A DNA stretch of 64,000 nt from Escherichia coli (GTDB taxonomy: Bacteria; Pseudomonadota; Gammaproteobacteria; Enterobacterales; Enterobacteriaceae), in assembly GCF_024502345.1 (NCBI RefSeq), contig NZ_JALDNN010000001.1; one strand, 5' to 3'. Below, in pieces: positions 8,449 to 38,948 of the stretch; the stretch's first letter is position 1, and every line of letters begins with the position of its first letter. The translations under genes were made by a program, and so were the position numbers. Below the pieces are notes generated by a model. The model saw only the letters and a program-made list of their open reading frames with translations, had not been told where the DNA came from and ran no database searches.

Positions 8449-9015
8449 TCACGGACAAATCATCCCCGTTCTGGCCGTTGCTATTGGCTCTGACATGGCC
8501 TTAACATGCACGGTAAGCTGGTTAAAGGGTGTTGCGAAGACTCCCTGAGCGACGCGGTTAATAATGATCTGCGTCATACTCGTTACACCGTCAGTGCAGG
8601 CGGTACCGGTCACCTTTTGCCATGCGTCGGCGATGATGGCGTTAAGCCCCGGAGGCGCACTGTCGGTCAGTTGCAGGTTTCGCCCTGTACCCAGCGTATC
8701 GAGATTGAGCAGCAGCACCATTTTGCACTCCGGTGCGCTGGCCGTCTCCCATATCCAGCGTAACAGCGTCGGGAGTGAACGATGTCGTGCCTGCTGACGC
8801 TGGCGCGAATATTCGCCGGTGCGCTGCCAGACTTCAGAGTGAAAACGCAGAATCAATGACCGGTATTCGCTCATGGCTTCACGATACGGTAGCGCCAGCG
8901 TAAAGCTGAATGCCGCCAGTCGCGGGTAATGGTCAACGGCCTGTTGCAGAAATGCACGCGTGCTGACGGCATCCGCGCTGACAGCATCAGACGCCCGTAT
9001 GTAAGAATGATTCAT
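8449..9015 (-). CDS. YagK/YfjJ-family (inovirus Gp2-like) protein
   Basis: Shares …HYPRLAAFSFTL…/…LLLNLDT… blocks with five other paralogs in this window. Confidence 0.65.
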   Translation of the reverse strand: MNHSYIRASDAVSADAVSTRAFLQQAVDHYPRLAAFSFTLALPYREAMSEYRSLILRFHSEVWQRTGEYSRQRQQARHRSLPTLLRWIWETASAPECKMVLLLNLDTLGTGRNLQLTDSAPPGLNAIIADAWQKVTGTACTDGVTSMTQIIINRVAQGVFATPFNQLTVHVKAMSEPIATARTGMICP

Positions 9016-9090
9016 AATGCAGACTCTCTTTAGGTTAAATCAGGGAGGACACCGCCTCTACGGCGGTATCTGGTTCATAAAGACGGGGAA

Positions 9091-9507
9091 CTATCTGGTA
9101 CTGCAGCAGTAGTTTCTCTGCCAGTGCGCTTCTTCGATGCTGTAGATACCAGTCAGACACCGGGGACAGTGCTTCACGCCCTGGTAATGGTCGCCGCACC
9201 ACACGCAGTACCAGGAGAGCACCATTACCGTCGCTTCCAGCCCGTTGATGAGACTGCGCAGCTTTCGGTGCCGGGCTTCGGTTTTCACTTCCGGGTCAAG
9301 GTGGGCGCAGGCCATCAGCACATGCCGGGCCACGCTCTGCTGGTCATGTTCAAACCACGGCGGCTCCCCGTATGTCCCCGCATGGAGCACCAGTCGACAG
9401 CCGCAGGACGCGCAGCTCCATATCTGCCCCGGCGCACTCACGGCCTCCCCGGCTGTCGCGAAGTGGCCTTCGCGGTCATTGGCCAGATAACATTTCAGCA
9501 TGCGCAT
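9091..9507 (-). CDS. cysteine-rich protein, paralog of 9495..9944 (putative zinc-binding)
   Basis: Shared motifs PWFEH and C-x2-C…C-x2-C (WYCVWCGDHYQGVKHCPRC) with the neighbour. Confidence 0.5.
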   Translation of the reverse strand: MRMLKCYLANDREGHFATAGEAVSAPGQIWSCASCGCRLVLHAGTYGEPPWFEHDQQSVARHVLMACAHLDPEVKTEARHRKLRSLINGLEATVMVLSWYCVWCGDHYQGVKHCPRCLTGIYSIEEAHWQRNYCCSTR

Positions 9508-9944
9508 GCCGTCACTTCCTCTATCCGGTTGGTATCAGCACGCACATCACTGTGCTCGCCCGTCCGGCAGGTGAGGCAGTAGCGCTCACCGTGGTAATCA
9601 CTGCCGCAGCCGTGACAGTGCCAGTCTGCGTAGAAAACCAGGGGACGGGCTTCCGGTACATAAGACTGCAGTTGCCGGATATGGCGGGTCTCCCTCACCC
9701 CGGGCTTTACATACGGGCAGTGCTGTCGACCGTTCTCCGAAAGCTTTGCTGCATGATGTTCAAACCACGGACGTTCGGTGTCGTATTCAGGATGGTACTG
9801 CAGGGCACTGGCACACAGATGGCAGCTGTAGCGGTCATACGGCGCGGTCTGCGCGGTTATGGCTCCCGTGAGACGGCCGTTGCCGTCCAGAGCCATAAAC
9901 GATTTTGCATACATAGTGGTACTCTCCTTACCGCCAGACGACAC
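9495..9944 (-). CDS. cysteine-rich protein, paralog of 9091..9507 (putative zinc-binding)
   Basis: RPWFEH, WHCHGCGSDYHGERYCLTCRTG; overlaps the downstream paralog by 13 nt. Confidence 0.5.
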   Translation of the reverse strand: MSSGGKESTTMYAKSFMALDGNGRLTGAITAQTAPYDRYSCHLCASALQYHPEYDTERPWFEHHAAKLSENGRQHCPYVKPGVRETRHIRQLQSYVPEARPLVFYADWHCHGCGSDYHGERYCLTCRTGEHSDVRADTNRIEEVTACAC

Positions 9945-10054
9945 GCAGGCGTCAGCCGTCCCGGTACGGGCAGCGTGGCAGGGTGAATGGCGGTTCAGTT
10001 ATGCGTTAGCGGGTCGGTACGGTTGGTGGTCGGCACCGGAATACAGAAAGGTTA

Positions 10055-10186
10055 CGGTTGTGCAGGTGCGTCGGTGGGTCTGAAACAAACGGGACAGGGT
10101 CTGGCGCCACAGTACTGTCGCCGGCAACGGGGACACGTCCAGCGAACCGGGATGGCCTGTGGCTGAGTGCGGCGTCGTTTTTCCAT
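10055..10186 (-). CDS. small zinc-ribbon protein (43 aa) just downstream of alpA
   Basis: Not in track. MEKRRRTQPQAIPVRWTCPRCRRQYCGARPCPVCF… ; a second copy sits at 30804..30917 with the same C-x2-C-R-R-x-Y-C-G-x2-P-C-P-x-C pattern. Confidence 0.4.
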
Positions 10187-36403: not shown

Positions 36404-36996
36404 TCAGAAGTGACCGTTCAGGCGGTCACCAAACTCGATAATAAAGCGGCTCATTGCCATACGCCAGTCCTTCAATGGCACTGTCCATTTCTGGGACGCA
36501 GACTGGATTGCCAGCCACACCACTTTTTTCACCGAGTCGTCTGTCGGGAACACTTTACGCTTTTTGATCGCATGGCGGATCACACTGTTTAGTGACTCGA
36601 TGGCATTTGTCGTATAGATCACTTTGCGGATGTCCGTCAGATAAGCGAAGAACGTAGTAAGATTCGGCCAGTTAGCCTGCCAGCGTCGGCTTATCTAGTG
36701 CTTGCTAGCCTGCCTCTTCCGTGGGTGCCTGATTAAATCTCTTTCAGGTCGCGAGTGACGGCTTTGTAGTCCTTCCATGACACGAAGCGCAGACTGTTGC
36801 GCACCATATGCACGATGCATAACTGGATGTGGGTCTCCGAATATACTGTGTTGATGGCATCTGGGAAGCCTTTCAGGCCATCTGCACAGATGATAAGGAT
36901 ATCGTTCAGGCCGCTGTTTTTCAGTTCAGCCAGCACATTGAGCCAGAACTTCGACCCTGTACACGATTTTGTGTGAAACAACGGGGAGCAGGTCAT
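36404..36996 (-). pseudogene. IS256-family transposase C-terminal remnant (frameshifted)
   Basis: Two ORF pieces: …ADGLKGFPDAINTVYSETHIQLCIVHMVRNSLRFVSWKDYKAV… and …IYTTNAIESLNSVIRHAIKKRKVFPTDDSVKK… . Confidence 0.7.
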
Positions 36997-37010
36997 CGCT
37001 TCCCAACCCG

Positions 37011-37889
37011 TTATTTCAGCGTGCCGAACTGTTTGTCTTTCAGTGCATATAGTCGGTCGAACTCAGCATAGGGCTCTCCCGTTTCAGCCGCGTGCCGGGT
37101 TTTAGCATCCAGAAGGTCGGGTAAAGGGATCCTATGATTCAGTGAGTGGTAAAGATCATAACCACTGACACAGATAACCCGCTTCCCTTTACCAAAAGCC
37201 GTCAGGCCTTCAGGCGTAAACCCCATCCAACTGATAAAAACACCGCGTGTCCAGGTTGCCTTGGTACTGAGTTTTCCTTCAAATACATGGAGGTCGGCAG
37301 CCGACGTTCTTTTCTGATGCCACTTTGCCTCCATCAGGTAAAATTCATCATTCAGCCGGAAACTTCCGTCAATCTGTTCTCCTGTATTTCGGAAAGACGA
37401 ACGAGGAGCAAGCTTAAAGATACTGAACAGTTCAGCAAGCCAGGCTTCAAACCGAAAACCACGTGGATGTGGCGGCAGAGATTTCATCTCGTTCATTTCA
37501 GCGATAAGTGAATGCCAGTCAACACCATGCCATGCCTGGACAGGCTTAACGCCTTTGGCTTCATCGGTGTCAGCGTTTTCTAAGCGGGAAATCAGTGCAA
37601 GATAGTCATTACGGCTTTGTTCAGCCTGTTCAGGCATGGATTCCGTTTTATACTGCCAGAGCGCACCAAGAACCCGCAGAGCGGTCTCACGATCAACCTG
37701 TTTCAGCAAGCATCTAACTCGTTTGGCTTTTGACGCCCCCTCTTTCTGATAACGTTCATCATCAATATCAATGTTCAATTCTTCATCGAAAAAAGCAGAC
37801 AAGGTGCGGTTAGAGAAATCCAGTATCCAGCCAGGATCGCTCTCGAACACGATATTAAACAGCCTCAAATCCTGCATTTTCAGTTTCAC
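37011..37889 (-). CDS. Mrr-like PD-(D/E)xK restriction-endonuclease-fold protein with unknown N-terminal domain
   Basis: C-terminal half has GFRFEAWLAELF…GEQIDGSF…EFYLMEAKW (D…EAK catalytic pattern). Confidence 0.5.
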   Translation of the reverse strand: MKLKMQDLRLFNIVFESDPGWILDFSNRTLSAFFDEELNIDIDDERYQKEGASKAKRVRCLLKQVDRETALRVLGALWQYKTESMPEQAEQSRNDYLALISRLENADTDEAKGVKPVQAWHGVDWHSLIAEMNEMKSLPPHPRGFRFEAWLAELFSIFKLAPRSSFRNTGEQIDGSFRLNDEFYLMEAKWHQKRTSAADLHVFEGKLSTKATWTRGVFISWMGFTPEGLTAFGKGKRVICVSGYDLYHSLNHRIPLPDLLDAKTRHAAETGEPYAEFDRLYALKDKQFGTLK

Positions 37890-38216
37890 GCCTACCTCCT
37901 TTTTTCACAGTATAACGGGATGAAAGTGGGGGAGGAAATGAGTCAGAACCTGTACACCAGCATTAGGGGATTCCGCGTCTGGTACAAAGCAGACTATGAG
38001 AAGAGAGACGCTATAACATTTGAGTCCTACCAATCGATCTGTTCATTTCTATGAATGGCAGTAAATGCAAATAACCAGAACAACCAAACGTTTTTCGACT
38101 TATGTGTCACGAACGGAAGTAGATGGCAATCCATTGCATTACTTCAGGACGACTTTTCAGAAAGCGAGCTAAGGGCGTTGGCATAAACTCAGGCATCGGA
38201 TGCTGTTTTACAGGGT

Positions 38217-38948
38217 TCACCTGCCATCCAGTAGACGCCCCGGCCCACGACTGCAACCATAATTACGTTGACCTGAACCATCATGCAACTTCGTTTCATT
38301 TTTCACGAGATAACTGGCTCTGTTCCGGGCTTTCTGCATCGCTTCCACATCACCACGCTTGATCCAGAGAACAGCGGCTTCACCAGACTTTTTGTCTGAA
38401 ACCTTCCTGGTTTCAGAACATCCACCAGGCACAGGCGTATCATCGGAAGAAGGGCGAGCATCAGATGATGTCGGTTTACGGAAAGGCGTCCGCCTGGAAA
38501 AATGAACCAGTCCATTACCCTGCCAGGGCTCAAGATGCAGAGCACTACACCATGCCAGCTTGATCAGTGTCGCCAGCGAAGAAGGAACGGTGAAATCCCC
38601 TGGCGAGCACCAGGTATCTTTGTTGAGCAGTAATATCACGTGATAATGTTTCCTGCCTTTTTCCTTGCCAAACTCCCGACACCAGAAATAACGCAGAGTG
38701 GTTGCACGCACACGCTTGTTGGCACGTCGTTTATGTCGCTGGTAAGCCTGAATTTTTGCTTTCAGGGATGCAAAAAAACGAGAAATCACCGCTGAATCTA
38801 AATCGGTATCCATGATGGTGGCAGGCATATACTCAGGGAAACGTAAATCCACCCGGATTAACGAGACGGCACGGTGTTGCGCCAGGGCACTGTTGAGAAT
38901 ACTTTCAAAACGGGATAACCAGTAAGCATTGTGTATTGGTTGATTCAT
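38217..38948 (-). CDS. YagK/YfjJ-family (inovirus Gp2-like) protein
   Basis: …RATTLRYFWCREFGKEKGRKHYHVILLLNKDTW… shared with the 10596..11201 paralog. Confidence 0.7.
   Translation of the reverse strand: MNQPIHNAYWLSRFESILNSALAQHRAVSLIRVDLRFPEYMPATIMDTDLDSAVISRFFASLKAKIQAYQRHKRRANKRVRATTLRYFWCREFGKEKGRKHYHVILLLNKDTWCSPGDFTVPSSLATLIKLAWCSALHLEPWQGNGLVHFSRRTPFRKPTSSDARPSSDDTPVPGGCSETRKVSDKKSGEAAVLWIKRGDVEAMQKARNRASYLVKNETKLHDGSGQRNYGCSRGPGRLLDGR

Follow-up and report, generated by a model that had tools for sequence, protein, structure and literature searches.

How many integrative elements does a cluster of related island genes represent? The question is raised by positions 8,449 to 38,948 of a 64,000-nucleotide stretch of Escherichia coli DNA (contig NZ_JALDNN010000001.1, assembly GCF_024502345.1; the whole stretch is hereafter the window), where six minus-strand open reading frames (ORFs) related to YagK/YfjJ, here Y1 to Y6 from left to right, lie among two copies of alpA. 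A sequence-only reading of the window had taken them for the stacked and decaying remnants of several integrative elements that entered one hotspot in series. We find that the six YagK-like genes and the two alpA genes derive from two backbones, one contributing two paralogs (element A) and the other four (element B), and that the region is an ordinary composite pheU island built of two backbones of known type. The fuller reading, in which we have good confidence even with its functional inferences included, is that the interval belongs to a composite genomic island which occupies the tRNA-Phe hotspot pheU in an E. coli-type chromosome, with two CP4-57/SpLE1-type backbones in the same orientation joined by a microhomology deletion, and with a deletion associated with the insertion sequence (IS) IS1 at its right end.

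Element B (18534–49729) is a common E. coli pheU island that carries Y3, alpA, Y4, Y5 and Y6. Positions 29357–49861 of the window are collinear with the single pheU islands of E. coli M159-1 and HCP6S3_I2, and in HCP6S3_I2 the order runs from tRNA-Phe through int, cargo, the defence cluster, ECs1377, Y3, alpA, Y4, Y5, yfjI (DUF3987), Y6 and the genes from the GTPase to DUF4942, ending at cadC. The order Y3-alpA-Y4-Y5...Y6 recurs in avian pathogenic E. coli at another site, and the exact Y5 protein (3282 collection blocks in the index) stands in the order Y6..Y5-Y4-alpA-Y3-ECs1377 in seven of eight further unrelated contexts, the eighth (L019) being without called alpA and Y3 genes. Because this order is conserved within single islands, Y3, Y4, Y5, Y6 and the second alpA belong to one element. 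B holds the full CP4-57-type backbone set (AlpA, YfjJ-type, DUF932, antirestriction, RadC, DUF987, CbtA/YeeU pair, DUF4942), and both backbones are laid out as two divergent arms, the leftward one with alpA embedded among YagK/YfjJ paralogs and the rightward one following the plan GTPase/DUF905, DUF932, antirestriction, RadC, CbtA toxin pair and DUF4942.

Element A is 99.95% identical to an island of E. coli EH09-18-41 that ends next to yghD, which, on the K-12 map, we take to be the pheV side; the EH09-18-41 regions examined contained no tRNA. Over its full 12.4 kb it is also 99.9–100% identical to 14 Klebsiella, Raoultella and E. coli plasmid records of 213–477 kb, among them a 338-kb conjugative IncFIB/IncHI1B plasmid on which the complete right arm comes after DUF2913, Y1, the two Zn-ribbon genes, alpA and Y2. 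In the window the backbone gene set of A is present up to a truncated DUF932 gene, and the rest of the set is found on the plasmid copies. The nearest relatives of Y2 come from Enterobacter, Serratia and Cedecea, and the Y2-bearing stretch of the window has a G+C content of 55–59%. Plasmid identity, the relatives of Y2 and base composition therefore place Y1, Y2 and the first alpA in a second, recently imported backbone, and the identity to the plasmid module would imply a very recent exchange of a CP4-type backbone between plasmid and chromosome.

The crossover between the two backbones lies inside CTGCTGCGCC on the A side and CTGCTGCACC on the B side, a microhomology of 9/10 bp, and A breaks off at 18533, within its DUF932 gene. 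Set against the plasmid copy of A and against intact B islands, the window suggests that the deletion took out the distal arm of A, the intervening att site, and the integrase and proximal cargo of B; a microhomology-mediated event of this kind would have fused the DUF932 gene of A to the flank of the defence cargo of B. The junction is absent from 5426 complete E. coli genomes, and an exact scan of one-genome-per-species contigs gave no match. The 131-aa fusion protein is found exactly on at least 24 public contigs, all from metagenomes or Logan, and because of this recurrence we regard the fusion ORF as a real lineage marker.

At the right end, positions 49708–49861 comprise the 3'-terminal 23 nt of tRNA-Phe, minus one deleted nucleotide, and a K-12-type flank downstream of pheU. 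The tRNA-Phe remnant marks the right end of the pheU island, and the pheU gene itself lies to the left of the window. Beyond the flank, IS1 leads directly to dcuS, with yjdI, yjdJ, ghoS/ghoT, lysU, dtpC, cadA, cadB, cadC and yjdQ lost, and E. coli core genome (dcuS-dcuR-dcuB-fumB), which shares 98.6% identity with K-12, makes up the right third of the window. IS1 would have deleted cadCBA-lysU at a later stage; a cad-negative genotype is of a kind known from Shigella and enteroinvasive E. coli.

Table 1. Features of the composite island, in window coordinates (PGAP, Prokaryotic Genome Annotation Pipeline; HTH, helix-turn-helix).
Feature	Position	Strand	Description and evidence
Element A segment	6114..18533		CP4-57/SpLE1-type backbone truncated at both ends; identity to E. 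coli EH09-18-41 and megaplasmids
DUF2913 gene	7767..8372	-	Last gene of the leftward arm of A; PF11140, E 5e-20
Y1	8449..9015	-	Degenerate YagK-superfamily paralog, UCP030791 type; CKM for HUH, catalytic Tyr absent
Two overlapping DUF7828 + Zn-ribbon genes	9091-9507 and 9495-9914	-	PF25165 + PF11682; PGAP annotation
alpA copy 1	10204..10443	-	PF05930, 35.0 bits; 79 aa
Y2	10596..11165 (ORF to 11201; PGAP start 11165)	-	Canonical YagK/YfjJ protein; HYH, Tyr, GCS motifs
Rightward arm of A	13312..18174	+	Hypothetical protein, membrane protein, HTH-WYL (YfjR-like), YfjT-like, DUF4234, DUF905
Truncated DUF932 fusion ORF spanning the joint	18278..18673	+	N-terminal part of PF06067 only; 131 aa
A/B deletion joint	18524..18533		9/10-bp microhomology CTGCTGCGCC; alignment with element A and three element-B relatives
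Methylation-associated defence cluster, six genes, cargo of B	18676..29227	-	Type III res-like helicase, type III methylase, AIPR/AbiU, Abi_2/AbiD, SNF2/DrmD-like helicase, small HTH mad1
ECs1377-family gene, partner downstream of Y3	29434..30057	-	NF052300, E 3e-97; conserved in all contexts
Y3	30146..30646 (ORF to 30688; likely start 30646)	-	Degenerate paralog, UCP030791 type; MRC for HUH
alpA copy 2	30914..31147 (probable true coding sequence)	-	PF05930, 40.2 bits; ~77 aa
Y4	31213..31773 (ORF to 31803; likely start 31773)	-	Orphan-family paralog; EYH for HYH, Asp for catalytic Tyr
Y5	32031..32597	-	Divergent paralog with HAH, Tyr, GCN motifs
Variable slot between Y5 and Y6	33752..37889		IS21/IS3/IS256 fragments; H-NS paralog 34809-35249; Mrr-like restriction endonuclease 37011-37889
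Y6	38217..38948	-	Canonical YagK/Gp2 protein; HYH, Tyr, GCS motifs, ~50-aa insertion
Rightward arm of B	42539..49597	+	GTPase, DUF932, antirestriction, RadC, CbeA/CbtA toxin-antitoxin pair, DUF4942; collinear with related loci L004, L006
attR-like remnant	49708..49729	+	tRNA-Phe 3' end with 1-nt deletion; then native pheU-downstream flank to 49861
IS1	49862..50631		Replaces 10.7 kb of K-12 core sequence

The six ORFs exist where the sequence-only reading had placed them, and all can be assigned to the YagK/YfjJ (HUH Rep-like) superfamily. The curated cut-off of the Pfam family PF11726 (YagK_YfjJ_C), 25.8 bits, is passed by Y2 (155 bits, E 2e-45) and Y6 (125 bits, E 4e-36), the latter also scoring above the cut-off for PF23343 REP_ORF2-G2P. 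Y1 stays below it (18.4 bits, E 2e-3) and aligns with YagK in profile comparison with 95.9% probability (E 5.6e-9); Y4, which was not detected in the Pfam scan of the window and scores 15.7 bits (E 0.014, below the cut-off), belongs to a family whose profile matches that of YagK with 97.8% probability (E 1.3e-12), and PF11726 is passed at 1.4e-10 by P0199, a 35%-identical relative of Y4 retrieved from 1.8 billion proteins searched exhaustively. Y3 has no PF11726 match and gives a weak direct comparison with the YagK profile (E 7e-3); its family matches Y1 with 96.7% probability (E 4.4e-10), and the newer Pfam family PF27752 UCP030791 is common to Y1 and Y3. Profile–profile and transitive links of this kind, through Y1 in the case of Y3, place Y1, Y3 and Y4 in the superfamily. 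The weakest case is Y5, with sub-threshold scores for PF23343 (4e-5) and PF11726 (7.5e-4, 19.9 bits) and an hhalign P of 0.002, yet it aligns end to end with its HUH, Tyr and GC motifs, and an identical protein is named "inovirus-type Gp2 / YagK/YfjJ domain-containing" by PGAP. A hidden Markov model sweep of all window ORFs found no seventh YagK-like ORF. Both alpA genes are genuine as well, each scoring above the curated cut-off of PF05930 (21 bits), and their products are 68% identical.

That the window holds no tyrosine integrase was borne out: tblastn with four P4-type integrases gave no match at E<=1e-3, and the window has only IS-type DDE "rve" transposases. The integrase is missing because the window stops short of pheU and because the A/B deletion would have taken out int of B; relatives hold int next to tRNA-Phe, together with integrase fragments between modules. 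If each YagK-like gene or alpA marked its own decayed integrative element, three to six serial integrations followed by erosion would have to be assumed. Tandem accretion does occur at pheU, the integrase fragments of relatives lie between modules, and two backbones are indeed present here. This scheme is, however, already contradicted by synteny, and we judge it improbable: a conserved block within single islands unites four of the six genes with one alpA, the remaining two travel with the other alpA as one block on the 14 plasmid records, a single att remnant is found in the window, and all six ORFs are intact and under constraint. Because there is one island block and one plasmid block, the backbones number two and not six. 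What stands of the idea of serial stacking, then, is that integrative-element backbones are stacked at one tRNA site, as witnessed by the tRNA-Phe 3' end, the native pheU flank and the integrase fragments of relatives; its "several" elements are two, and comparison with related genomes, which upholds the stacking, reveals multi-paralog blocks within single islands instead of one element per paralog. An origin of the paralogs by recent duplication within this genome, for which nothing was found in favour and whose probability we regard as practically nil, is refuted by an all-against-all protein comparison in which identity does not exceed 42% (Y2/Y6 42%, Y1/Y3 26%, Y1/Y2 33% over 113 aa, other pairs marginal), by the lack of DNA similarity among the six genes (the longest exact run is <=12 nt), and by the orthologs that each paralog has in other genomes. 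The near-identity that would have spoken against the sequence-only reading is thereby ruled out, and the paralogs appear from their sequences to be anciently diverged.

Neither the supposed decay of the genes nor the supposed role of the repeated modules as substrates for homologous recombination is supported by the data. With all six ORFs intact, ratios of nonsynonymous to synonymous substitution (dN/dS) of 0.05–0.5 (against orthologs, 0.05–0.13 for Y4, 0.14 for Y5, 0.28–0.41 for Y6 and 0.35–0.52 for Y3, next to 0.02–0.08 for the second alpA) identify the paralog genes as maintained and not as decayed remnants. The DNA repeats shared by A and B amount to a DUF932 stretch (276 nt, 76%, longest exact run 23 nt) and an alpA stretch (176 nt, 77%, longest exact run 14 nt), with none found beyond these two; they are poor substrates for RecA-dependent recombination, and the actual joint bypassed them.

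In a joint alignment, Y2, Y5, Y6, YagK and YfjJ retain the H-U-H motif, a Y-[LM]-x-K...K helix and a C-terminal GC[SN] motif; in Y2 the motif reads HYH...Y-L-A-K. His94, His96, Tyr168, Lys171 and Lys175 are invariant in 16 diverse members of the canonical family. The HUH and Tyr sequence motifs are thus present in three of the six paralogs (Y2, Y5, Y6) and missing from the other three: Y1 (CKM) and Y3 (MRC) have lost HUH and are without the Tyr and GC motifs, and Y4 has EYH with Asp in place of Tyr, its family possessing an invariant C-terminal motif of its own, W..SD..RDR. The motif-less Y1, Y3 and Y4 are still under purifying selection. Each backbone combines both kinds around alpA, with Y2 intact and Y1 degenerate in A, and with Y6 and Y5 intact and Y4 and Y3 degenerate in B. 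The structure model of Y2 (predicted local distance difference test, pLDDT, 85) matches the ferredoxin-like nuclease fold of HUH endonucleases; against viral models it gave 122 matches at E<=1e-3, and among the 50 listed the only two named ones are microvirus replication initiators. The Y3 model (pLDDT 63) gave generic ferredoxin-like matches only, Y6 has weak matches to replication initiators in PHROG, and sequence searches of the PDB with the YagK profile, Y6 and YfjI yielded nothing useful.

In CP4-57, AlpA activates integrase-dependent excision of its element, and by analogy the AlpA proteins of the two backbones would most likely do the same. The motif-intact HUH proteins, possibly together with the DUF3987 helicase YfjI, would then most likely introduce a nick at an origin of the excised circle and so serve rolling-circle replication or relaxase-like mobilisation. 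In relatives yfjI stands between Y5 and Y6, and the gene adjoins YagK-type genes in relatives and in K-12; the motif-less paralogs may be conserved DNA-binding or regulatory derivatives. We tentatively suggest that YagK/YfjJ proteins could be the missing replication initiators or relaxases of the CP4-57/SpLE1-type islands that are so common in enterobacteria, with Y2, Y5 and Y6 nicking the AlpA-excised circle and YfjI completing a split Rep, and with Y1/Y3 and Y4 as pseudo-enzymes that would attach to the origin, or would regulate or keep out competing islands stacked at the same tRNA.

A number of points weigh against the overall interpretation, in its structural as well as its functional part. 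The left boundary of A (6114) is scrambled by IS elements, and A is also plasmid-borne, so that its entry might be due to integration of, or recombination with, a plasmid and not to site-specific integration of its own; the window does not extend to pheU, attL or any integrase, and hence shows neither the left end of the island nor how A arrived. The putative family link of Y5 is drawn from sub-threshold scores. Nicking, replication and mobilisation are inferred functions. When the flanks of six motif-intact genes (Y2, Y5, Y6, YagK, YfjJ and the homolog in locus L007) were compared by k-mers, no conserved hairpin or nick site emerged, only chance-level motifs and ordinary terminator hairpins, and searches of a literature library returned no functional study or function assignment for YagK/YfjJ. 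An Rfam search found no RNA in the modules.

The same island structure is compatible with another role, in which the proteins of the YagK superfamily, the motif-intact ones included, are non-nuclease DNA-binding transcription or partition-type regulators that act with AlpA and xenogeneic silencers. This we regard as possible but somewhat doubtful. It would account for the conservation of three of the six paralogs despite their missing catalytic residues, for neighbours such as alpA, ECs1377 ("DNA-binding protein" in PGAP) and AT-rich regions, for the failure to find an origin or nick motif, and for the scarcity of Y2-like proteins among phages, since a single one of 50,697 phage records, an unverified contig, matches at E<=1e-3. 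The strict invariance of HUH, Tyr and Lys in the canonical family, however, is hard to explain without catalysis, and the matches of the predicted structure to the HUH-endonuclease fold also point the other way. The name "inovirus Gp2 family" given by PGAP could further suggest that filamentous (inovirus) prophages left these genes behind as remnants, and so could the score of Y6 for PF23343 and its PHROG matches. This is very improbable and already contradicted: annotated neighbours in or near the modules include no other inovirus gene (coat, Zot-like, ssDNA-binding) and are instead CP4-57-type island genes, and the tblastn search of the phage records with Y2 returned one unverified 4.5-kb contig and no inovirus. 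That record, OR844780.1 ("Escherichia phage ECO111 5-P"), unannotated and assembled at ~3.7x coverage, holds a homolog 67% identical to Y2 and is probably host island DNA rather than phage.

Several further features in and around the two backbones were observed. In relatives, PGAP labels the six-gene defence cluster a methylation-associated defence system (MADS; "mads1"), and the slot between Y5 and Y6 is occupied by yfjI or by a TIR-domain gene; within the backbone, this slot resembles a variable hotspot for defence or silencing. Between Y6 and the rightward arm, an AT-rich gap contains an iteron-like array (39847–40010) of 5–6 copies of CTTAnTnAAAAyA, often followed by yGTGTA; five of the nine window matches are packed into 135 bp, relatives differ in copy number, and the array could be a regulator-binding site or an origin. 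A 21-bp tandem duplication (41457–41498, two copies, 95% match) lies at the convergent ends of two hypothetical genes, 40616–41503 (+) and 41500–42447 (-). On the Klebsiella quasipneumoniae plasmid p2012C06-006-1 (replicon type IncFIB/IncHI1B, one record inspected), element A sits between efflux genes of the resistance-nodulation-division type and a tellurite-resistance (ter) cluster. Near the left boundary of A, a fragment of an IS256-family transposase abuts a frameshifted fragment of tssB (type VI secretion sheath) at 6342–7030, debris common to EH09-18-41 and the plasmids. The left edge itself (1443–6146) is a nest of mobile elements in which a group II intron (reverse transcriptase/maturase 2000–3523; Rfam Intron_gpII 1910–1996) and IS30 (4674–5825) break up an IS3-family element, and to its left lies a truncated gene for a major facilitator superfamily transporter (589–1194). 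E. coli TUM1881 has a hybrid left arm (locus L007, 25648–27458) in which a short Y3-like fragment and ECs1377 stand together with two Zn-ribbon genes and a Gp2 protein that shares 69% identity with Y2, evidence that in other strains mosaics arise by recombination between A-type and B-type modules.

Counting paralogs overestimates the number of elements stacked at a tRNA hotspot, since a set of two to four YagK-type genes, diverged long ago, is native to some island backbones. The locus also documents the welding of two backbones by a microhomology deletion and, at the edge of the same island, the deletion of the cad locus with IS1. As YagK and YfjJ are still y-ome proteins, the division beside alpA into paralogs with an intact HUH motif and others that lack it yet are conserved offers a testable hypothesis for a widespread group of genes.

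Compared with HUH endonucleases, namely the Rep proteins of single-stranded DNA viruses and rolling-circle plasmids and the relaxases, Y2, Y5 and Y6 have a similar predicted fold and arrangement of HUH and Tyr. They differ in being single-domain proteins of ~190 aa, for which we know of no activity, origin or fused helicase, and half of the copies here are motif-less. Among the closest islands are those at pheU and pheV in E. coli, which share the hotspot and the backbone, element B being 89–99% identical to them (the intact island of HCP6S3_I2 among these); the gene set "inovirus Gp2 family", YfjI, YafZ, YkfF and KlcA has been described for the pheU/pheV islands of Shiga toxin-producing E. 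coli (PMC6174562). In contrast to these, the version in the window carries a fused element A on its upstream side, is missing both the proximal cargo and int, and has lost the cad region to the IS1 deletion.

Among the islands of E. coli K-12, CP4-57 (intA-yfjH-alpA-yfjI-yfjJ ... yfjP-yfjQ ... lfgA-lfgB-ypjJ-yfjZ-ypjF) resembles the window elements in its integration at a tRNA/tmRNA site with a P4-type integrase and in the families that it shares with the window: AlpA, YfjJ-type, GTPase, DUF932, HTH-WYL, YfjT, antirestriction, RadC, DUF987 and a CbtA-type toxin pair. Its YfjJ is 34% identical to Y2 and 29% to Y6. CP4-57 has a single YagK-type gene, with alpA upstream of yfjI-yfjJ and beside int, whereas in the window, which is without int and yfjI, alpA lies inside clusters of two or four paralogs. 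CP4-6 (at thrW; intF-yagN-ykgV-yagM-yagL-yagK ... ykfA-yafZ ... ykfI) has the same right-arm genes and the namesake YagK, 38% identical to Y2, but one paralog only, and its resolvase-like YagL and its YagM/YagN are absent from the window. CP4-57 and CP4-6 carry one YagK-type gene each, and the presence of multiple copies is a property of backbones A and B.

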